Origin: a virus
Virus record (IMG/VR): IMGVR_UViG_3300047095_000666
Span: 1 to 64,000 of that record
Reading direction: 5' to 3' (one strand)
DNA length: 64,000 nucleotides
Shown: positions 4,454 through 48,666 of the stretch, one piece after another
Position numbering within the stretch: the first letter of the stretch is position 1
Layout: each line of letters begins with the position of its first letter
Made by a program: the position numbers and the translations under genes
Notes under the pieces: generated by a model
Told to the model about the DNA's origin: nothing
The model's database searches: none
The model's input: only the letters and a program-made list of their open reading frames with translations

Positions 4454-5206
4454 ATGGCATCAATCAAGGATTTACTGAAACGTAGGAAGCAGGAGCAGGC
4501 GCTGTCTGACGACGAGAAGCCGGAGTTCGACATAATGAACTACGACATCCGGGACCAGCTGTTCGACAGGATGGACGCGGTGCTGAAAGTCTCCCAGAAG
4601 TTGCTGATGCCGTACGCCAACGAAGAGATCCGATCTCTGGTGACGCGGTACGGCGCTGACATCCGGGACCAGAAGCCCATATTCACGGTCGAGGGGGACG
4701 CCCACGAGGGCGACCTCACCTCCGTGTACCCGAAGGCCCGTGACGCCCTGTCCAAGAGGATCTGGGCTGGTGCCTACGCCGTCCAACAGTACTCGCACAT
4801 CTCGGAGTTCCTCAAGACTGCGAAGCAGGCGTTCGAGCTGAAGTGCGGCCTACCCGTTCGCGGCTCTCTGGACCGGGTGGAGTTCTACATGGATGAAGAG
4901 GACCGCGACCACGAACCCGCGATCCCCGAGACGCTGGTCGTTCGTTACGAGGTCTTCTATCCCGAGGAGTTCGACATCCAGTGCCACGCCGTCATGAGCG
5001 AGCTGGACCTGTGCGCCAAGGAAGCCGGTTACTTGGTGGTCGGCTCCACAGACCACATGCAGACGCAGTACGGCACTCGGTACAAGCATCCTGACCATCC
5101 CGAAGAGGAGCTTGCGATAGAGCTGTTCTGCGGAGACGAATTCGACCCGAACGACCCGATACGGGTTAACGCGATCTGGGTCTCGTTCGAGATCGAGAAC
5201 GAATGA
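4454..5206 (+). CDS. Hypothetical protein; tandem paralog of 5203-5925
   Basis: GAAAGGAA SD; shared IQC-helix block. Confidence 0.8.
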   Translation: MASIKDLLKRRKQEQALSDDEKPEFDIMNYDIRDQLFDRMDAVLKVSQKLLMPYANEEIRSLVTRYGADIRDQKPIFTVEGDAHEGDLTSVYPKARDALSKRIWAGAYAVQQYSHISEFLKTAKQAFELKCGLPVRGSLDRVEFYMDEEDRDHEPAIPETLVVRYEVFYPEEFDIQCHAVMSELDLCAKEAGYLVVGSTDHMQTQYGTRYKHPDHPEEELAIELFCGDEFDPNDPIRVNAIWVSFEIENE

Positions 5207-5925
5207 GTCTGGCGCACGACATCGGCACCCCGGCATACATGGCTGTGGTGCTGTTCGACGACGATTACACCACCAACCTGAAGGATCCGTTCGAGGACCA
5301 CTCCCACCCCGACTGGAGGGGGAGCAACGTCGACACCCTCATGGGGATCATCGACCGTGGACTGAAGAACGACCGGATGAAGAAGATGGGCACCAACCCC
5401 GACCCGTTCATGGGAGGTGCCGACTCGGTGGTCGCGGACGTCTTCGGCAGGTCAGAGGACTACGTCGATCCGGGATGGAGCATGGACGTCTTCATCACTA
5501 CCGAAGAGGTGCCGGAGATCCACCAGTTCAAGAAGCGTTACTGCTTCGAGTCCTGGACCGAGATACAGTGCTGGATTGCTCTGGAGCGAATCGGTGAGCT
5601 GGCGCTGTCTATGGGGATGGAGCTGGTGACCGACGAGCGGAAGCCTGCCGAGAACCCCAAGGGAGAAGCGATCACTCGCGAGTACCGCGACGAGGCGCTC
5701 GGAGTCACCGCTGCGGTCGTCCTGAAGCTGGACGAGTACAGGGTCAGCGGGTGGCTGAGACAGTTCGACGTAGACAGCGAATCGGTACAGAACGAGATCG
5801 AGATCTACTGGAGGATCTCGATCGGCAGCGACTTCGGATTTTGCAAGCCGGTGCCGGAGGTTCTGAAGTCCAAGAAGATCAAAAACAAGCTGGCGCAAGC
5901 CCGATTAGAAAGGAAGAAAGTATGA
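5203..5925 (+). CDS. Hypothetical protein
   Basis: ATGA overlap; similarity to 4454-5206. Confidence 0.75.
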   Translation: MSLAHDIGTPAYMAVVLFDDDYTTNLKDPFEDHSHPDWRGSNVDTLMGIIDRGLKNDRMKKMGTNPDPFMGGADSVVADVFGRSEDYVDPGWSMDVFITTEEVPEIHQFKKRYCFESWTEIQCWIALERIGELALSMGMELVTDERKPAENPKGEAITREYRDEALGVTAAVVLKLDEYRVSGWLRQFDVDSESVQNEIEIYWRISIGSDFGFCKPVPEVLKSKKIKNKLAQARLERKKV

Positions 5926-6263
5926 GCTCTGATGACGGAAGGATCCCGCTGTTCGAGCGGGAAGGTTTCATAATCTGTTTCGAGGCTCTGGACGAGATGG
6001 ACTCCGTCCGAGACCACTTCAAGCGGACCGGGATGGAAAAGAAGCAGATCGACTCCCTCCAGCGGAAGCTCGGGAGCGGGAAGGCCGTCTGGTTCCAAGC
6101 GATCGTCTCCGCTTGGAAGGACGGGAGGCAGCTCGGAGAGGCTTCTCTGGGCGGGTGCTTCTACAGCTCCTTCGAGGAGTTCTACAAGACAGAGGGAGAC
6201 TACTTCGACGACCTCGCGAACCAAGCAATCGCAGAAGCAAAGGAGAAAGCATGTACAAAGTGA
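5922..6263 (+). CDS. Conserved-looking phage hypothetical protein
   Basis: GAAAGGAAGAAA SD, ATG at 5922; SLGGCFY motif. Confidence 0.75.
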   Translation: MSSDDGRIPLFEREGFIICFEALDEMDSVRDHFKRTGMEKKQIDSLQRKLGSGKAVWFQAIVSAWKDGRQLGEASLGGCFYSSFEEFYKTEGDYFDDLANQAIAEAKEKACTK

Positions 6264-6616
6264 CGATTGAGCAGCTGGCGAACGCCAAATTCCAAGAACC
6301 CCGCGACCTGTGGACGATCTGGGCCGGAGAGGGTAACGGAGTCCATGTGGCGTCGATGCACCCTTCCATGAAGACGCAGGAGCGCCGCGAGATGAGCAAG
6401 AAGGTGACCGACCTGATGAACGGGACGATCCAGCCGGTAGAAGGAGAGGTGTGGGCTTGGGTCTCCAACCACGCGCTGTCCCTGAACGGCGTCAAGAAGA
6501 TCGTGGTATCCACCCACCTCCCCTTGGACGTCCGAGACTGGCTGGTCAAGGAAATGCTCCGGAGGATGAACGCCAGCGTCAAGCAACTCTGCGGGCAGAT
6601 CCCTCCTGCTCTGTGA
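6251..6616 (+). CDS. Hypothetical protein
   Basis: AAGGAG SD, ATG at 6251. Confidence 0.7.
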   Translation: MYKVTIEQLANAKFQEPRDLWTIWAGEGNGVHVASMHPSMKTQERREMSKKVTDLMNGTIQPVEGEVWAWVSNHALSLNGVKKIVVSTHLPLDVRDWLVKEMLRRMNASVKQLCGQIPPAL

Positions 6617-9968: not shown

Positions 9969-10204
9969 AGAACCGTCCAAAGATCACCACCGTCGAGCAG
10001 ATCCGCCAGCAAGTACAGCGGATCGAGCCGGACCTGCCCCCGTTTGCCCTGAACTCCAAGGCCCTTGACGATCTGTATAAGCACGTCACCCGGACCGGGG
10101 ATCCCAAGGCGCTGATGCACCTGCGCCAGCAAGCGTGTCTCGCCAACGCGATGCAGGCCCTCCACGAGGGCTGGGACCTCGACTACCTCTACGAACTGAA
10201 CTGA
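9965..10204 (+). CDS. Hypothetical protein
   Basis: AAGGA SD, ATGA overlap. Confidence 0.7.
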   Translation: MKNRPKITTVEQIRQQVQRIEPDLPPFALNSKALDDLYKHVTRTGDPKALMHLRQQACLANAMQALHEGWDLDYLYELN

Positions 10205-10215
10205 AAGGAAGAAGC

Positions 10216-10608
10216 ATGAGCGAACAAGAAAAGACCTTCTCGGTCACGACCACCATCGAATCCCAGCGAATCGCCGACCTCGTGACCACTGCCTTCGAGG
10301 GAGGGAGCAACTACTGGATCGAGACCGTGTCAATCCTGAAGGTGCCTCCGAAGCCGGAGGGCGAGGACCACAGCTACCCGTGGTACTCGTTCAAGAACGT
10401 CTACGAGGACCCCGACTTCCAAGTCAAGATCAACGTGGAAGATGACGACCCGGTAATCTTCGATCACGCGTCCATCCAGCGCGGTCTGGACTACCTCTCC
10501 AAGAATTATCCTCGTCACATCAACGACATCCTGCAAGAGAACGATGACGCCGAGACCGCCGACGCGTTCCTGCAAGCATGCCTGTTCGGCGACATCGTCT
10601 ACGGCTGA
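10216..10608 (+). CDS. Conserved-looking phage hypothetical protein
   Basis: GAAAGGAAGAA SD; AFEGGSNYW and DAETADAFLQACLFGDIVYG. Confidence 0.8.
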   Translation: MSEQEKTFSVTTTIESQRIADLVTTAFEGGSNYWIETVSILKVPPKPEGEDHSYPWYSFKNVYEDPDFQVKINVEDDDPVIFDHASIQRGLDYLSKNYPRHINDILQENDDAETADAFLQACLFGDIVYG

Positions 10609-16899: not shown

Positions 16900-16911
16900 A
16901 ACAGTAAGGTA
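16900..16911 (+). promoter_or_regulatory. Putative late promoter AACA-N6-TA
   Basis: AACA GTAAGG TA upstream of the neck gene. Confidence 0.65.
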
Positions 16912-16938: not shown

Positions 16939-17655
16939 ATGATTGCCGAACTCGTGAACAACATCAAGGCGCGTCTTGGCGCGTCGCACCGAAATCTAGA
17001 GCTAGACGACCGGGACATCGTCAACCTCCTACAGAATGAGACGCTGAAGACGGCCTCGATCTACAACCCCTTCTTCCTCGAATACCTGCTCGACCCGGAG
17101 ACCGAGCGGGTCGAAGGGATGGGCAACGTCTTCAACGTCCCGATGGAGATCGCCGGGTTCGAGACGATGGGCGTCGAGAAAGTCTTTGCCGCCCAGAACA
17201 CCGCGTCAATGTACGGATTCGTTCCATACGGGATCCTCGGCGGGGACATCGGGACCATCATGGGGAACTACCTCAATATGAAGCTGGCGAACGGGATCAC
17301 CGGCTTGATGCTCCCGCCCGACACTTTCCAGTACGTCCATCCGGGGATGCTGCGCATCTTCAACACGTACACCCAGAACAAGTACTTCGTCGTGCTTCGG
17401 ACCACTCACAAGAAGGACTTCAGCACCTTCCCCTACGGCCTCCGCGAGACGATCATGAAGCTGGCGCTGGCCGACGTCGCCAACGACCTGCTCGGCATCA
17501 GAACCTTCTTCCAGAACCTCGGCAGCACCTTTGCCGAGATCAACCTTAATACCGACATGCTCAACAACTGGGCTGACAAACGCGACGATCTCATTGAGAA
17601 CATGCGTAAAAACCAGTTGAAGAACGCCGGTGTCCGTAAAATCTACGTGGCATAA
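16939..17655 (+). CDS. Putative neck (head-tail connector) protein, T4 gp13-like
   Basis: IKARLGASHRNLELDDRDI resembles the gp13 N-terminus ILRRLGAPIINVELTPDQI; late promoter upstream. Confidence 0.55.
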   Translation: MIAELVNNIKARLGASHRNLELDDRDIVNLLQNETLKTASIYNPFFLEYLLDPETERVEGMGNVFNVPMEIAGFETMGVEKVFAAQNTASMYGFVPYGILGGDIGTIMGNYLNMKLANGITGLMLPPDTFQYVHPGMLRIFNTYTQNKYFVVLRTTHKKDFSTFPYGLRETIMKLALADVANDLLGIRTFFQNLGSTFAEINLNTDMLNNWADKRDDLIENMRKNQLKNAGVRKIYVA

Positions 17656-17666
17656 CTACGCCCCCT

Positions 17667-17678
17667 AACATAAGTGTA
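17667..17678 (+). promoter_or_regulatory. Putative late promoter AACA-N6-TA with no convincing downstream CDS
   Basis: AACA TAAGTG TA immediately upstream of the structured region. Confidence 0.6.
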
Positions 17679-17882
17679 GTAGTCGCGTTGCAGCGCCTCT
17701 GTGCTGTCCGATCGTTGAGCTGGCGAGTGTTTCTTCCTTTCTGCAGCCTACCGTCTCCGGTCCGACACGCCCATGCCATAGCCTCCGCTTCATTCTCCTC
17801 CCTGAAGCCGACGCAGATGGATGCGCGTAACCCGCACGACAATGGAATCCCCCTACGGCCTTTTAGGTCGTAGGGGGCTTTT
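17678..17882 (+). ncRNA. Candidate ~200 nt late non-coding RNA with a rod-like fold and two pyrimidine-rich loops
   Basis: Own promoter and terminator; nested helices GTCG/CGAC, GTTGC/GTAAC, GCGC/GCGC, TCTGTG/CGCAGA, TGGC/GCCA, GTGTT/GACAC; side hairpin GCTTCA/TGAAGC; G-U pairs favour the + strand. Confidence 0.6.
17849..17882 (+). terminator. Intrinsic terminator
   Basis: CCCCTACGGCCT-TTT-AGGTCGTAGGGG then GCTTTT. Confidence 0.75.
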
Positions 17883-17884
17883 CC

Positions 17885-18301
17885 TTACTGTCGTCTGCTC
17901 AGAACGGCGTATAGTGAGTTTGGTGAGAACCTCCAAGCGTCTTTATATCCTAATGCGTAGGCTACTGCCTCGGAACAAAAGTACTTGGAGCGGTCTTCTG
18001 GAAGTGGACTGAGAACGAAACCAAACAGACCGGCAAAGTCGTATTTGGCTCCATCGTGATTAACAAACCACTCGGCGGCAGCTGACTCGTCGTAGCCCTT
18101 AAGCTCTATGATGTCCCAATGTTCTGGGTCTAACTCTATTTCTTTTGTCCTGACGCCTCCATCGCGAGGAGAAGACGACGCACAGATTGTTTTCCCATCT
18201 TGATCAAACACTAATTCAAGATGGGAATATGACCCTTTAGTCCACCAAGAAATGGCGGCGTCAAGGAAGTGGGTTCTATCCTTGTAAAATGCAACTTTCA
18301 T
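17885..18301 (-). CDS. Permuted papain-like NlpC/P60 (YiiX-like) protein
   Basis: YSHLELVF (His) precedes KYFCSEAVA (Cys); GAKYDFAG. Confidence 0.75.
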   Translation of the reverse strand: MKVAFYKDRTHFLDAAISWWTKGSYSHLELVFDQDGKTICASSSPRDGGVRTKEIELDPEHWDIIELKGYDESAAAEWFVNHDGAKYDFAGLFGFVLSPLPEDRSKYFCSEAVAYALGYKDAWRFSPNSLYAVLSRRQ

Positions 18302-18324
18302 AGGAGAATCCTTTGAAAACTATC

Positions 18325-18336
18325 TAACTTTCTGTT
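18325..18336 (-). promoter_or_regulatory. Putative late promoter AACA-N6-TA
   Basis: AACA GAAAGT TA. Confidence 0.6.
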
Positions 18337-18342
18337 CTCGCA

Positions 18343-18381
18343 AAAAAAAAATCTCCATGTGTCGAAAGGCACATGGAGATT
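18343..18381 (-). terminator. Intrinsic terminator
   Basis: A run + ATCTCCATGTG-TCGAAAGG-CACATGGAGAT. Confidence 0.8.
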
Positions 18382-18393
18382 GTTTCCGGCAGC

Positions 18394-32269: not shown

Positions 32270-34654
32270 TCAGTAGCTCAGCTCTTCACGATCGAGACCG
32301 TCGAAGATCTCGTTCATGAATTCCTTGCGGAAGTCGACGCGGTTAGATGACATGAAGTTCGTTACGACAGTCTTTGCATCGGCCAGATCGTCCACTCCGA
32401 TGCGGACCAGCTCGCGGTTGTCGGGGCTGAGGGTGGTGTCCCAGAGTTCTTGAGAGTTCGCCTCGCCGAGTCCCTTGAAGCGAAGCACGGAGTACTGCTT
32501 GTTGAGCTGGCTGTTGATAGCCGCCATCCGACCGTAGATCGTGCTGGACGCAATATCCTTGCCGTCAACGCGGTGGATCTCGACTGTCGTGGCCAGATCG
32601 ACGTAGCTGCCCTCGTGCAGCCCGACGAGACTGCCGTAGAACTCTTCGGCGTTCTCGTTCACCACGGCGAGGAAGGTCTCCTCTGCGGTGTCGGAGTCTC
32701 GGTGGAAGCCGACGATGGAGATCTTGTCGTCGTCCACGTCCATCTTCACCTTCTTCTTGTCAAAGCCGAATTCGTAGGTCTCGTTGTCGAAGTTCTTCAG
32801 GAACGCCAGCTCGTAGATGTGCGGGTCCACACGGTACTTGCCAGCCGCCTGCTCCACCTCACGGCAGTACTGGCGGAGCCGACCGAACAGCTTGCGCTTC
32901 ACCTTAGAGGAGGTCACTTCCTTCCCGTCCACGAAGAACTTGAACGTCTTCTCGGCCTCTGCGAGGAAGAAGGCGTCGAGGTCGGCGGTGGTCTTCAGGT
33001 AGATCGGCTTCCGTCCGGCTGCGGTGACGCGGTAGAGCGGCGCTTGAGCGAAGTAGAGCTTCCCAGCTTGTACCAGCGGCTCGAAGAGCTCCAGATAGTT
33101 AGTCAGCATCAGGAGCTTGATGTGGTGTCCGTCGTCGTCGGCGTCGGCGGCGATGATCACCTTGTCGAACTTGCACTTCTCAGAGTCGATGGCTTCCTTG
33201 ACGCCGCAACGCATCACGGAGATCAGGTCTGCCAGCTCCTTATTCTTGTAGATCTTCTCAATGTCAAGACCGAGCGAGTTCAGGGGTTTGCCCTTCAGCT
33301 CGTACACGGCCTGGAAGTTCTTGTCACGACCGTCACAGATGGTGCCTGCTGCAGACGAACCCTCGACGATCCACAGCTCTGCCACGGACGGGTCATCCTT
33401 CAGGCAGTCGGAGAACTTGCTGATGCTGTTCAGGGAACTCAGGAAACCACCGGCTTCCTTCTTCACCGTGTCGAGCGCCCGCTTCGAGGCGATGCGAGCC
33501 TTGGCGGTCAGAGCAAAACGCTCCGCCAGACGCTTCATCTCCTTGGCGTTCTTATCCAGCCACTCGCGGATACCCTTGGAAGCCACGGCGAACACGCATC
33601 CGTTGACCTCGTTGTTGGTCAGCTTCTGCTTGGTCTGGGTGGCGTACTTCGGGTTCAGGACGAACACGGATACGATGGCCGAGAGGCCGTTGTACATGTC
33701 GTCGTTCTCGATGGCCTCCTTGCAGAGCTTGTTGGTCTTGACGTAGTCCGTGAAGTACTGGCTCACGGTGCGCTTGAAGCCGGTGACGTGGACACCACCC
33801 TCGCTAGTGCGGATCGTGTTGGTGAAGGAGTGGATGTCCTCGTCGCGGAAGTCGGTCGTCCAAGTGAAGGAGATCTCCACCTTGACATCCTTGTCGATGC
33901 CGCTGATCGTGATGGGCTTGACGATCTGCTTCTTCGGGTCTACGAACTCCTTGATGAACTCCTCGGTGCCGTGCTCGAACTTCCAGCGGTGGAGCTCGGA
34001 CGATGCCGCCAGCGACTCCTTGTAGGTGATCTCCAGACCGTTGTTGAGGTAGGCGGTCTCGCGGAGGAGCTTGATCACCTCGTCGTTGGCGACGTAGGAC
34101 TCGAACAGCGTCTCATCCAGAGCGAAGTTCACGCTGGTCCCGGACTTGTAACCCTTGACCGGCTTGGCGTTGTTGTCCACCTTGACAGTCTTCTTCAGGC
34201 CCTCGTTGAACTCGATGCGGCCCTCGGACTTATCACGTCGGGAGGTGACGATGAACTTGCTGGAGACGGCATTCACGCAGGACGCACCAACGCCATTCAG
34301 GCCGGTGGTGTACTCGGTCTTGTTCGCGTCGAAGTTGCGACCAGAGTGTAGCTCACCGAAGATCACCTCAAGAGCGTTCTTGCCAGATTCGTGGCGCTGA
34401 AAGGGAACACCGCGACCGTTGTCGGCGACGATGAACTCGTTTTCAGACACCCGAACTACGTTGATCATAGTGCAGTAACCGCGAAGGAACTCGTCCACAG
34501 AATTGTTGACGATCTCGCGGAGGCAGGTCAGGGAGCCGTACTCATCCAGATTCGACAAGTAAATTTGAGGCCGTTTCCGGACGCACTCTGGAAACGGTAA
34601 TTGTTTAATCGAGTCTGCATCATACGTCTCGTTCTTTTTGACTTTCGCGTTCAT
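32270..34654 (-). CDS. gyrB: DNA gyrase / type IIA topoisomerase subunit B
   Basis: YDADSIKQL, EIVNNSVDE, DNGRGVP, GLNGVGAS, VEGSSA, DADDDGHHI, RFKGLGE. Confidence 0.95.
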   Translation of the reverse strand: MNAKVKKNETYDADSIKQLPFPECVRKRPQIYLSNLDEYGSLTCLREIVNNSVDEFLRGYCTMINVVRVSENEFIVADNGRGVPFQRHESGKNALEVIFGELHSGRNFDANKTEYTTGLNGVGASCVNAVSSKFIVTSRRDKSEGRIEFNEGLKKTVKVDNNAKPVKGYKSGTSVNFALDETLFESYVANDEVIKLLRETAYLNNGLEITYKESLAASSELHRWKFEHGTEEFIKEFVDPKKQIVKPITISGIDKDVKVEISFTWTTDFRDEDIHSFTNTIRTSEGGVHVTGFKRTVSQYFTDYVKTNKLCKEAIENDDMYNGLSAIVSVFVLNPKYATQTKQKLTNNEVNGCVFAVASKGIREWLDKNAKEMKRLAERFALTAKARIASKRALDTVKKEAGGFLSSLNSISKFSDCLKDDPSVAELWIVEGSSAAGTICDGRDKNFQAVYELKGKPLNSLGLDIEKIYKNKELADLISVMRCGVKEAIDSEKCKFDKVIIAADADDDGHHIKLLMLTNYLELFEPLVQAGKLYFAQAPLYRVTAAGRKPIYLKTTADLDAFFLAEAEKTFKFFVDGKEVTSSKVKRKLFGRLRQYCREVEQAAGKYRVDPHIYELAFLKNFDNETYEFGFDKKKVKMDVDDDKISIVGFHRDSDTAEETFLAVVNENAEEFYGSLVGLHEGSYVDLATTVEIHRVDGKDIASSTIYGRMAAINSQLNKQYSVLRFKGLGEANSQELWDTTLSPDNRELVRIGVDDLADAKTVVTNFMSSNRVDFRKEFMNEIFDGLDREELSY

Positions 34655-35604
34655 TTTCTTCCTTTCACAAATTGGTCGATTACTTCTCGGATCCTTGTCA
34701 TGTGATCCTCAGTGTAGTCTATCCGGATTAACGTTATGCCGTTTTCTTGGCAAAACGCGTTCTTGATGGAATCTCTTTTAAGCTGGTCTTGCTGAGACTC
34801 TCTCCAGACAGAATTATTGGAAGCAAATTTCATTGGATCATGTTGACTCCCGTCATACTCAACTAAAATGAATTCATTGCCACCGGTATGTATTCCGAAA
34901 TCGAATGCTAATGGTTTTTTATTTCTACATTCATCAAATTTCACTTCTTCTTCAAAGTGTATTCCTTCCTTCAATAGAAAGTCTTTAATTTGAAGATGAG
35001 CTTTGGAGTGTTTTCGCAAAGAATTGCATTTAGGACAACGATCACCACATATGAATCGCATTGGTTTTACGTTGTACTCATGACTTTTACAGGTCTCACT
35101 GTTATGACGGATCAGTATTGGAGTAGCGTTGTTGACGTACTCACCAAGTACTTCGTACTCTCCGCCAGTCATGTTGCTGACTTCTTTAGCAAACACAAAG
35201 GTTGTTTTCTTTTGCCTCTTTGAGCAGATGGGACAAGTTCTTCCTGCGAGTATCTTTACCGGAGCAACTAGGTATGTGTGGCTGGAACCGTTTTCGTCCG
35301 TGTGTTCGACTTCAACTTTTTCTTTGTTATTCACATACCTTCCTATTACCCTGTAAGACTCTCCATGTAGATCTGAAACTTGCTGTACGAAATCCGAGTG
35401 TGTCTTCTTTGGAGTGCCAAAGCATTTAGGACAACGGTCTCCTCTCAGAAATCGTTTAAACGATGTACTAAAGACGTTTCCGCACACCGGATGAAACACT
35501 GAAAGTGTATCCACCGCACGGATATACTCTGAGCTTTTCAACTCATAGCCTTCCTGTGCTATGTAAATTCGCACTTCATCTAAAGTGTGCGGTTTCTTCC
35601 CCAT
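34651..35604 (-). mobile_element. Free-standing putative homing endonuclease (zinc-ribbon repeats plus PD-(D/E)XK/Vsr-like domain)
   Basis: Three CPxC repeats; KPLAFDFGI, VEYDGSQH, D.IKN.FC..NGITLIRI; markedly AT-richer than flanks. Confidence 0.75.
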
Positions 35605-35613
35605 TTCTTCCTT

Positions 35614-35940
35614 TCACTTGCAAAGCAATTTCTTGCGGTGGTCGTCGATGTCTCGGGAGAACCACTTGACGATCGACAGCATTTCCTTGAACGTGTTCTC
35701 CGACACCTCCTTGAAGGAGCTGCACTGCACCGATGGACTAGACCCATCACAGTAGAACACGTCATCCTCTTGGACGGTCCTGTGACCGTACCACTTAGAT
35801 AATATATCGTCGATCACCGTTTGGAGGAATTCCTCCGCCTCCTCCGTCTCGCAGGAGATCCGGACGATGATCGTGACGTTGCTGCTCGACTCGCCGTGAC
35901 CTTCGATGAGGGAGACGGCGTAGTGCTTGCGGATCTTCAT
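35614..35940 (-). CDS. Hypothetical protein; paralog of 35937-36263
   Basis: AVSLIEGHGE..EAEEFL..ID..LSKWYG. Confidence 0.7.
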   Translation of the reverse strand: MKIRKHYAVSLIEGHGESSSNVTIIVRISCETEEAEEFLQTVIDDILSKWYGHRTVQEDDVFYCDGSSPSVQCSSFKEVSENTFKEMLSIVKWFSRDIDDHRKKLLCK

Positions 35941-36672: not shown

Positions 36673-36821
36673 TTCGTTTCCTTTCGTGAACTTTCTTACT
36701 GCTGTTGAGTTAGCCCCCTCGCGCGAATAATACTTATATTCTTTTATATTATATATAAGGGAACTTCGTTTCACCCTTACAAAAAAAGTGAGGGATCATG
36801 TAGAACGATCCCTCACGCGAA

Positions 36822-46818: not shown

Positions 46819-48567
46819 ATGGCGACTCAAACCCGTTTCGTGGCCAAGAACGGCCTCGACAACAACAGCAAGACGATCACGAGCGTGGCCGATCCGGTCA
46901 ACGCCCAAGACGCGTCCACCAAGAATTTCTCCAGTAACGCCGACAACCTGACTGCAGGCACCGTTGCTGCCGCCCGCATGCCCGCCTTTACCGGCGATGC
47001 TACTTCTTCCGCTGGTTCCACCGCCCTGACCCTCGCCAACGTGGTCACTGCCGGTACCGGCATAAAGATCACCTTCAACGCCAAGGGTCTGGTGACTGGC
47101 TCCGCGTCTCTTGCTGCTGCGGACATCCCGTCTCTGGACTGGAGTAAGATCACCTCCGGCAAGCCGACCACACTCTCCGGCTACGGCATCACCGATGCTC
47201 AAACTCTGATCGCTGCAGGCACCACCGCTCAGTACTATCGTGGCGACAAGTCGTGGGCAACTCTCGACAAAGCTGCTGTCGGTTTGGGTAACGTCGAGAA
47301 CACCGCCCTCTCCACTTGGGCTGGCTCCTCCAACCTGACCACTGCTGGTAACTTGACTGCGGCTTCGCTGTCTGTCACCGGCAACCTGACCGTCAATGGT
47401 ACGACCACGACCGTCAACAGCACGACCGTCACCCTCGACGATCCAGTCATCACCCTCGGCGGCGACACCGCTCCGACGACTGACGACAACAAAGATCGCG
47501 GCGTTGAGTTCCGTTGGCACAACGGCAGTGCTGCAAAGGTAGGCTTCTTCGGCTTCGACGACTCCACCGGCAAGCTGACGTTCATCCCGGACGCCACTAA
47601 CACCAACGAAGTCTTCAGCGGCTCCAAGGGTACCATCGATGCGTACATCGCGTGGTCTGATGTCACCAGCAAGCCAACGACTCGTGATGGTTATGGGATC
47701 ACCGACGTTCCCAAGACTGACGGCACAGGTGCTTCTGGATCGTGGAATATCAGTGTCACCGGCACGGCAAGTTCTACGCCGCAGCACACTGTCGTTGACC
47801 GCGATCGTACTCTGGCTGCTACTTTGCCGAACTCCTTCGGCCAATCGGTTCGGTTCGACTTTGCGAATGCGTCTGCGACTGGCACTGGAGGCAATTACTC
47901 CGGCGTGATGACTTTTGCTCCTTACACCGGAACTACCGCATCTACTGGTGACGCTTCGTATCAGATTGCGTTCGGCAGTACCGCCGTGAACGGAGGCGGC
48001 AATCCGCAGCTCCGTATCCGGAAGGGCATTGACACAACGTGGAACGGTTGGGTTGACGTACTGACGAGTGTCAATTACAATAGCTACTCCCCGACTCTGA
48101 CTGGCACTGGCGCTTCTGGCAGCTGGGGCATCAACGTCACTGGCACTGCCGGTGGTCTATCTGGCGGTGATTCCACGTTCTACGGTCTGCTGTACAATAC
48201 CTCAACTGCCGATCTCAATACTTTCAATGCTCCCGGTATTGTCAGCGCCGAGTACACTGGCTCCACCAACCGTCCTGTGGCCTCCACGGGTCACATGTTC
48301 CAGATTTCTGATGCTGGCGGCACTGACGTCAAAACTCAGTGGTACTTTGAAAGCACTGGTGTCACTCCCTACGTGCGTCTGCAATGGGGCAATGGGACGT
48401 GGAAACCTTGGCAGGCCGTCCTTACCAGCAGCAACTTCTCCACGTATGCGACTCCGGCAGCACACGCTGGCGACGCCAACATCCACATCACCGCAGCTCA
48501 GAACACGTTCCTTGACGCGTTTGTCACAGGCGGCGATGTGATCCTTGACGCAAACGCTACGTTCTGA
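46819..48567 (+). CDS. Tail fibre protein
   Basis: VADPVNAQDASTK, KPTTLSGYGITDA, VGLGNVEN, gp37-like distal domains (W.GW, WKPW). Confidence 0.9.
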   Translation: MATQTRFVAKNGLDNNSKTITSVADPVNAQDASTKNFSSNADNLTAGTVAAARMPAFTGDATSSAGSTALTLANVVTAGTGIKITFNAKGLVTGSASLAAADIPSLDWSKITSGKPTTLSGYGITDAQTLIAAGTTAQYYRGDKSWATLDKAAVGLGNVENTALSTWAGSSNLTTAGNLTAASLSVTGNLTVNGTTTTVNSTTVTLDDPVITLGGDTAPTTDDNKDRGVEFRWHNGSAAKVGFFGFDDSTGKLTFIPDATNTNEVFSGSKGTIDAYIAWSDVTSKPTTRDGYGITDVPKTDGTGASGSWNISVTGTASSTPQHTVVDRDRTLAATLPNSFGQSVRFDFANASATGTGGNYSGVMTFAPYTGTTASTGDASYQIAFGSTAVNGGGNPQLRIRKGIDTTWNGWVDVLTSVNYNSYSPTLTGTGASGSWGINVTGTAGGLSGGDSTFYGLLYNTSTADLNTFNAPGIVSAEYTGSTNRPVASTGHMFQISDAGGTDVKTQWYFESTGVTPYVRLQWGNGTWKPWQAVLTSSNFSTYATPAAHAGDANIHITAAQNTFLDAFVTGGDVILDANATF

Positions 48568-48606: not shown

Positions 48607-48666
48607 GTTAGCGTGTCTCTCAACAGTGATTGGCACGAATCCTTTTTCTCATTAAGGAAGAAACAA

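Follow-up and report, generated by a model that had tools for sequence, protein, structure and literature searches.

A predicted late non-coding RNA with pyrimidine tracts complementary to ribosome-binding regions in an AR9/phiR1-37-like jumbo phage

Genomic context of the locus

The window analysed here is a stretch of 64,000 nt (positions 1-64,000) that forms the first 64 kb of the IMG/VR contig IMGVR_UViG_3300047095_000666 (G000; 97,885 bp), which is estimated to represent 37% of a jumbo-phage genome. The element under study lies in a 229-nt gap that separates the convergent genes 16939-17655 (plus strand) and 17885-18301 (minus strand), and a late, independently transcribed non-coding RNA of the plus strand appears to be the best reading of this gap. 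The gene just 5' of it, 16939-17655, encodes a virion structural protein whose GenBank relatives are limited to phiR1-37 (a Yersinia phage, 41% identity), the AR9/PBS1 group and Staphylococcus jumbo phages. The window also encodes the beta subunit of a multisubunit RNA polymerase, both topoisomerase II subunits and an NAD-dependent ligase. The phage is an uncultured freshwater jumbo phage of the AR9/phiR1-37 type. A blastn search with the RNA locus against 50,697 GenBank phages returned zero matches.

Promoter and terminator of the predicted RNA

The late promoters of phage AR9 follow the pattern AACA-N6-T(A/G), the last base of which is the transcription start site (PMC5312081). A copy of this motif, AACATAAGTGTA (AACA-N6-TA), occupies positions 17667-17678 on the plus strand, with its predicted start at A17678. 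It begins 12 nt past the stop codon of the virion-protein gene, and no gene on the plus strand follows for 5.2 kb. The motif occurs 58 times in the contig and 21 of these copies are intergenic, intergenic sequence making up 9.1% of the contig (binomial p=1.6e-8). Most of the intergenic copies are found 20-65 nt 5' of gene starts, typically in the form AACA-N6-TAG, and the copy at 17667 matches the extended AACA-N6-TAG(T) form found before genes. We judge AACA-N6-T(A/G) to be used as a promoter in this phage and the unit in the gap to be a putative late unit of AR9 type. No sigma-70-like promoter was identified in the gap.

An intrinsic terminator was identified on the plus strand at 17849-17877 (to 17884 with its tail), consisting of a 13-bp stem with nine GC pairs followed by the tail CUUUUCC. 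The terminator scan called it on the plus strand only, the same strand as the promoter. The hairpin of this terminator, CCCCCTACGGCC...GGTCGTAGGGGG, recurs at 70061-70091 of G000, and at 47124-47162 and 124-155 of G002, with 82-91% identity. G002 is a closer relative of this phage (76% identity in the RNA polymerase beta subunit), represented by a fragment that does not cover the RNA locus, and the hairpin appears to be a module common to the two.

A scan for tRNA and tmRNA genes found none at the RNA locus, and no Rfam family reached its gathering score anywhere in the window. When matches with E up to 10 were considered, the RNA region returned only sub-threshold hits to CcsR1, anti-hemB and two long non-coding RNA models. 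Since the late motif and the plus-strand terminator are combined with the lack of a conserved open reading frame (ORF; see below), a late plus-strand RNA of ~205 nt is predicted, running from promoter to terminator (17678-17884). That such an RNA exists we consider likely.

Predicted structure of the RNA

The predicted fold consists of a closing stem that joins 17682-17688 to 17834-17840, a 5' hairpin, a weak central hairpin with a first pyrimidine tract and a long imperfect hairpin with a second. The 5' hairpin (17690-17707, plus strand; GCAGCGC-CUCU-GUGCUGU) is present in both the minimum free energy and the centroid folds. Tract 1, UUUCUUCCUUUCU (17730-17742, plus strand), is antisense to the consensus ribosome-binding region of the phage. 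Tract 2, UUCUCCUCCC (17793-17802, plus strand), is a 10-nt apical loop containing the anti-Shine-Dalgarno core CCUCC, and is presented by the long hairpin (17767-17828, plus strand), which was found in all folds; each base of this tract has a predicted unpaired probability of 1.00. Compared with shuffled sequences, the whole region has a folding z of -4.06.

Complementarity to ribosome-binding regions

The first-pass annotation of this DNA had proposed that both loops of a candidate RNA in the gap are antisense to two Shine-Dalgarno (SD) variants used by the phage itself. The strings that it singled out, TTTCTTCCTTTC at 17730-17741 and TTCTCCTCCC at 17793-17802, are correct in both letters and position, and the 12-mer GAAAGGAAGAAA is indeed found exactly at the three start regions it had named, as well as with 11 of 12 bases before gene 10216. 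Gene starts and early and late classes, the class of a gene being that of the nearest promoter motif upstream on the same strand, were taken from our own simple caller and are approximate.

The first exact copy (5908-5919, plus strand) lies in the ribosome-binding site (RBS) of the early gene 5922-6263, 2 nt 5' of the ATG, where complementarity to the RNA extends over 13 nt. The second (34655-34666, minus strand) is the RBS of the topoisomerase II/gyrB-like gene 32270-34654 and abuts the ATG at 34654. The third (35604-35615, minus strand) is the RBS of gene 34651-35604 (DUF2726), the last A of the 12-mer being the A of the ATG at 35604. The 11/12 copy (10203-10214, plus strand), in the RBS of gene 10216-10608, gives the best duplex energy, -22.2 kcal/mol. 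With up to one mismatch allowed, GAAAGGAAGAAA is matched six times against 0.33 expected. The RBSs of gyrB and of gene 34651-35604 share 13 nt, GTGAAAGGAAGAA, and constitute one duplicated site, which leaves two independent exact targets, not three.

Two of these genes deserve separate mention. Gene 5922-6263 (plus strand, 113 aa, ATG at 5922), which overlaps the stop codon of 5203-5925 and the start of 6251-6616, is missed by a longest-ORF caller and is supported as a gene by its perfect RBS. Gene 34651-35604 (minus strand) has a GC content at third codon positions (GC3) of 0.40, compared with the 0.75-0.85 typical of the phage, and sits directly 5' of gyrB, overlapping its start (ATGA). Its features suggest a mobile endonuclease that either copied the RBS of gyrB or arrived with it; the more specific label of homing endonuclease, given to it in the first-pass annotation, was not confirmed.

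For a measure of complementarity that is less dependent on single matches, a weight matrix was built from 84 start regions of this phage aligned on their GG core. The resulting consensus, CTGAAAGGAAAAAAAA, reads (T)GAAAGGA with an A-rich spacer after it. On this matrix CAGAAAGGAAGAAACA, the complement of tract 1, obtains 16.3 bits, above 97.6% of the real start regions; of 3558 randomly chosen 168-nt windows that contain no gene start, one reaches such a score. Tract 1 thus mirrors an almost ideal ribosome-binding region of the phage, and its complementarity exceeds chance. The complement of tract 2, at 11.0 bits, is the second-best site in the complement of the RNA.

Simple counts are less impressive. 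A 12-mer antisense match to any start region has a frequency of ~4e-4 per base and strand genome-wide, pyrimidine runs of at least 10 nt occur at 1.1 per kb and strand, and the full complement of loop 2, GGGAGGAGAA, is not enriched (10 matches against 6.4 expected).

The complement of loop 2 shares the 7-nt string AGGAGAA with the starts of genes 6251, 25941, 56241, 56887 and 61388, as had been claimed, and further with those at 75828, 85992 and 97700, outside the window. The use of AGGAT or AGGAC by late genes 41608, 43986, 46819 and 56993 was likewise borne out, and these forms are frequent among late structural genes of G000. The division into two SD variants did not hold: start regions form a single continuum, (T)GAAAGGA(A/G) plus an A-rich spacer. 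Tracts 1 and 2 pair with different registers of this continuum, as the 16S rRNA 3' tail CCUCCUUUCU would, the tail used here being the textbook sequence and not one derived from the host. Tract 1 was also considered as the mirror of a real gene start on the minus strand, and this was rejected as no ATG, GTG or TTG follows its complement before the gap ends. Near tract 2, a minus-strand ATG at 17793 lies only 3 nt past GGAGG.

Early and late genes differ in Shine-Dalgarno strength

An early motif resembling that of AR9, ATATATNAT-N6-G, precedes the clusters of replication and nucleotide-metabolism genes. Copies in the window were found at 1111, 7906, 11238, 22810, 27824, 31349 and 35807, and further copies at 36756, 41028, 56928, 58705, 62187 and 62247. 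The consensus, (G)ATATATNAT-N6-G, is very near the AAATATATATTAT-N6-G of AR9. Gene 31094 and the RNA polymerase beta gene (62336) carry both early and late motifs, as does the class of AR9 genes termed 'continuously expressed'.

With genes divided into these approximate classes, the predicted duplex energy of loop 1 is -11.5 kcal/mol at early starts (n=61) and -8.7 kcal/mol at late starts (n=33; p=0.0013), and that of loop 2 is -7.85 and -6.35 kcal/mol, respectively (p=0.013). The 16S anti-SD sequence CACCUCCUUUCU gives -8.26 kcal/mol at the same early starts and -6.30 kcal/mol at the late ones (p=0.0005). Early genes of G000 have stronger SDs than its late genes, and this difference is real. 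Long exact matches are distributed as six early and one late for each loop, the base rate being 65% early.

Related loci in other phages

The relative G001 (IMGVR_UViG_3300046507_000667; complete, 249 kb, 35% GC) shares with G000 the virion protein (46% identity) and the ligase, and almost no gene order. Its gap syntenic to the RNA locus has a length of just 44 nt, and blastn of the RNA against G001 found only a promoter-like 14-mer. When all G001 gaps of at least 130 nt were screened for a late motif followed by pyrimidine runs on the same strand, two stood out.

The first of these, RNA1 (111751-111960, 210 nt), possesses an orphan late promoter and a textbook terminator, and starts from AACATAAGTATAG, the counterpart of which in the window is AACATAAGTGTAG. 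Its first tract, UCUCCUUUCUCCUU, spans +46 to +59, and its second, UUCCUCCUUU, spans +100 to +109 and is placed in an apical loop; those of the window RNA are located at +53 to +65 and +116 to +126. The second, RNA2 (217121-217232), which likewise has an orphan late promoter, is shorter than RNA1 and has the tract UCCUUUCCU at +52; in both RNAs the UCCUUUC-type tract is as far from the start as in the window RNA. The tracts of the G001 RNAs are predicted to be 0.67-0.93 unpaired, and both RNAs show a 5' hairpin and sequence blocks comparable to those of the window RNA. The blocks common to all three are AACAT.AG..TAG, GCGG, UUCUG.UC and GGC..G.. followed by CCUUUC. RNA1 and RNA2, which are paralogous, share GUUGG(G)CAUGAU...CCUUUC, and all three share UUCAU-N3-(U)CCU(C/U)(C/U), which is antisense to an SD separated by 3 nt from an AUG.

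A late motif followed by UCCUUUC within ~110 nt selects the RNA units and one match in a coding region of G000, with 0.4-0.7 matches expected per genome. On a matrix made for G001 itself, the complements of the G001 RNAs score 10.7 and 9.6 bits, at about the 99th and 97th percentile of control windows. The RNAs of the two phages may be homologous, and we interpret them as a small family or, failing that, as a design used more than once.

Other searches gave no further member. The G002 fragment contains terminator look-alikes only, with no promoter-plus-UCCUUUC unit, and a protein-anchored search of metagenome contigs returned none. In the Staphylococcus jumbo phages SA1 (L030 1203-1616) and Madawaska (L032 1203-1572), the virion-protein homologue is followed by gaps of 370-414 nt with no annotated gene, which are AT-rich and possess a terminator directly after the gene and a sigma-70-like TTGACA...TATAAT region. 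Unlike the RNA studied here, these gaps have no comparable pyrimidine tracts.

Strain variants and coding potential

Positions 17689-17813 are covered by contigs of four public runs, which belong to three studies and comprise wastewater cDNA libraries and two metatranscriptomes, one of a river and one of freshwater; a lack of cover elsewhere carries no information. In one wastewater cDNA run, the contig over 17689-17813 has a word depth of 331, compared with 2-26 for the other listed contigs of the phage, and in the river metatranscriptome the corresponding depths are 10.3 and 2-8; these values serve as a lead only, as contig word depth cannot rank expression and the library may contain DNA.

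One variant lineage, whose copy of the neighbouring gene differs at 17 of 1504 nt (99% identity), has eight clustered differences in 17760-17781 and a +1 insertion. The RNA region contains two small ORFs, a plus-strand one of 61 aa and a minus-strand one of 42 aa. The insertion alters all downstream protein sequence of both, leaving no conserved frame, so that the region is probably not coding.

The sequence of the variant was rebuilt from the table of changes, which is incomplete, together with the 30 letters visible past 17813. In the X3/X15 variant both arms of the outer stem of the hairpin 17767-17828 have been exchanged with pairing retained (CCAU:AUGG to CUAUC:GAUAG), which is only suggestive because it is a single event drawn from that incomplete table. 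The inner stem and the loop UUCUCCUCCC have no listed change in variant contigs X3, X4 and X15. Tract 1 also has no listed change in the variant contigs, and at ~1% divergence this carries little weight.

Past 17813 the variants diverge. One contig, from a 99%-identical strain, joins 17813 to 18391, and hence is without the terminator, gene 17885-18301 and the promoter of that gene. Gene 17885-18301 has a GC3 of 0.46, is assigned to PHROG 1128 ('enoyl-CoA hydratase-like'), has no Pfam match and possesses its own late promoter at 18336. The 577-nt block 17814-18390, which includes the 3' part of the RNA, looks like a strain-variable inserted extra gene (moron).

Proposed function and alternative explanations

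In the mechanism that we propose, the non-virion RNA polymerase of the phage would transcribe the ~205-nt RNA late in infection, from its own AACA-N6-TA promoter to the intrinsic terminator. The two open pyrimidine tracts would imitate the 3' tail of 16S rRNA and pair in trans with the SD region and A-rich spacer of mRNAs, keeping ribosomes off. Because pairing strength tracks SD strength, the RNA would hit messages with strong SDs hardest, that is, early phage genes (gyrB, 5922 and 10216) and probably host mRNAs, and late structural messages with weak SDs would be largely spared. The data themselves show the sequence features, their setting between promoter and terminator, the absence of a conserved coding frame, the predicted accessibility and the analogue in G001; the production of the RNA, its abundance, its binding and its repressive effect are all matters that we infer. 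A late trans-acting RNA that occludes the strong RBSs of early and probably host messages is put forward as the most likely of the explanations considered, one that we hold to be plausible rather than probable.

A number of observations weigh against it. Tract 1 is only mostly unpaired, with predicted probabilities of 0.54-1.00, and is placed in a weak, poorly defined hairpin with no clean apical loop. The body of the RNA without its terminator folds no better than shuffled sequences (z=-1.01), so that the folding signal of the whole region comes mostly from the terminator. When loop energies were regressed on anti-SD energy, no residual difference between early and late starts was found (p=0.24 and 0.47): early starts bind the loops better because their SDs are stronger. 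Early starts are indeed predicted to pair more strongly, as the first-pass annotation had anticipated, and this enrichment is explained entirely by SD strength. Its broader proposal, a late small RNA (sRNA) that silences early or host mRNAs by SD class, retains the late RNA, the accessible tracts and the stronger pairing of early genes, and loses the selection by class; the predicted targeting has no demonstrable class specificity beyond strong SD. A counter-example is late gene 48667, which has an exact 12-nt match, AAGGAAGAAACA (48654-48665, plus strand), as had been cautioned. Furthermore, a single sRNA would need very high abundance to compete with ribosomes on many mRNAs.

The comparative data add to these points. 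The G001 RNAs have no match of 10 nt or more to gene starts of G001, and the homology of the G000 and G001 RNAs relies on short blocks and layout, the MAFFT alignment of the whole RNAs not being trustworthy. The exact loop-2 hairpin pattern gave no match in IMG/VR or in JGI metagenomes, and joint patterns derived from the three RNAs, which are circular for their source sequences, identified no further IMG/VR contig. In AR9, BpSp, two Staphylococcus jumbo phages and phiR1-37, promoter-plus-UCCUUUC gave 3 matches compared with 2 in the control, apparently in coding sequence. The cover of the locus in public runs consists of assembled contigs, which cannot give the start, end, strand or level of a transcript.

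Among the alternatives, there may be no separate RNA gene at all, the region being the structured 3' tail of the virion-protein mRNA with a chance copy of the promoter motif, and the tracts being incidental or relics of a gene start once copied in inverted orientation. Gene 16939-17655 is preceded by a late promoter of its own, at 16900, and as no terminator comes before 17849 read-through must cover the region. The unexceptional stability of the RNA body, the commonness of pyrimidine runs, the shortness of the syntenic G001 gap (44 nt) and the variation of the 3' part between strains are all in keeping with such a tail. Set against this, the promoter copy fits the extended AACA-N6-TAG(T) form that precedes genes, tract 1 amounts to a 3-in-10,000 event, the hairpin persists despite changes on both of its arms, and two units with the same arrangement of promoter, tract and terminator are found at other places in G001. 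On this evidence we regard a mere 3' tail as unlikely.

Alternatively, the RNA may be real and act as a decoy or sponge for a protein or enzyme that recognises either single strands rich in pyrimidines or the end of 16S rRNA that carries the anti-SD. Ribosomal protein S1 is one conceivable partner; others are an RNA chaperone, a translational regulator of the phage and a host nuclease with the 3' end of 16S rRNA as its target. The two tracts look like the 16S tail itself (UCCUUUCU and CCUCC) and not like any single target, UCCUUUC is the element common to the three RNAs of G000 and G001, and the lack of specificity past SD strength and of long target matches in G001 also speaks for a decoy. 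However, no candidate binding protein was identified, and tract 1 runs into the complement of the A-rich spacer, which is absent from 16S rRNA, so that pairing with mRNA fits better. A decoy seems to us rather improbable; were the RNA such a mimic of the 16S tail, this would direct attention to a factor, of host or phage origin, that recognises the tail.

A small protein could be encoded instead: GGGAGGAGA precedes the minus-strand ATG at 17793, which opens an ORF of 42 aa, and a TTG at 17688 opens one of 61 aa on the plus strand. Both ORFs are present, the minus-strand ATG follows a strong SD, and G001 RNA1 shows by eye a 31-aa minus-strand ORF with a similar SD and a 3-nt spacer. The gap between SD and ATG is, however, 3 nt compared with ~7 nt usual in the phage, the minus strand is without a promoter motif and lies past a hairpin, the plus-strand ORF has no SD and crosses the terminator stem, and the +1 insertion in a 99%-identical strain rewrites the downstream sequence of both, which makes a coding function very improbable. 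A 6S-like RNA that binds RNA polymerase is less credible again: its size (~200 nt) and a closing stem (17682-17688/17834-17840) would be similar, but the predicted fold branches as a three-way junction, where a 6S RNA would form a rod with a central bubble, and no 6S model matched even at E up to 10.

Returning to the proposed RBS-occluding RNA, a wider and more speculative possibility, which we rate as unlikely, is that late anti-RBS RNAs form a class present in AR9-like and further jumbo phages and act as a global translational timer. If so, strong-SD host and early messages would be silenced late, the weak-SD late structural messages would remain available to ribosomes, and the difference in SD strength between early and late genes (p=0.0005) would complete the device. 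In lytic phages the switch from early to late genes is controlled mainly via transcription, and to our knowledge there are few trans-acting sRNAs of virulent phages. A full-text literature search found no virulent-phage sRNA acting by general anti-SD pairing. Were the proposal true, jumbo phages would possess an RNA-only layer of translational control serving host shut-off and the silencing of early genes.

Comparison with known systems

Among the sRNAs of Firmicutes with C-rich loops, such as the hairpins of S. aureus RNAIII and RsaE/RoxS, apical loops pair with the SD and block initiation; these are host-encoded regulators of metabolism or virulence. Unlike them in origin, the predicted RNA also has no sequence or structural similarity to RNAIII or RsaE/RoxS, and no Rfam match to them.

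In AR9, late promoters of the form AACA-N6-TA/G and early promoters that are ATATAT-rich and end in N6-G have been reported, together with short monocistronic late units with strong terminators (PMC5312081). The locus studied here has the same promoter grammar as the late transcription units of AR9. The main text of the AR9 paper does not contain the terms 'noncoding', 'sRNA' or 'small RNA' (PMC5312081). In phiR1-37, misc_4 is an ORF-free intergenic sRNA of unknown function, detected by RNA-seq between g099 and g100 (PMC4848604), and it is the only sRNA of this kind detected by RNA-seq in cultured members of the wider group. It differs from the predicted RNA in its locus, and in a comparison made by eye only it shows no similarity, no AACA-N6-TA and no comparable tracts.

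The closest parallels are found in Alphaproteobacteria, where alpha-r14/NfeR1 and the cuckoo sRNAs (CcsR1-4) repress many mRNAs by RBS occlusion (PMC10746234, PMC4615179). Members of the cuckoo family consist of two to four adjacent hairpins, every loop of which has the same CCUCCUCCC motif (PMC4615179). The predicted RNA resembles cuckoo and alpha-r14 in its trans-acting design, here a prediction, and in hairpins that show unpaired anti-SD motifs on stems free to vary. Its loop 2 (UCUCCUCCC) matches eight of the nine bases of CCUCCUCCC, and CcsR1 is the sole Rfam model that spans both tracts. In contrast to cuckoo members, it scores only 12.9 bits against CcsR1 (RF02791; E=3.1), where the gathering threshold is 65.3, and tract 1 (UUUCUUCCUUUC) differs from the motif and is situated in a weak hairpin, so that the motif is not repeated. 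It further differs in being phage-encoded, in its jumbo-phage late promoter, in its enclosing stem and in its 5' hairpin. The RNA is not a member of the cuckoo family, and the working principle proposed for it is one already known from cuckoo and alpha-r14 and from the C-rich-loop sRNAs of Firmicutes.

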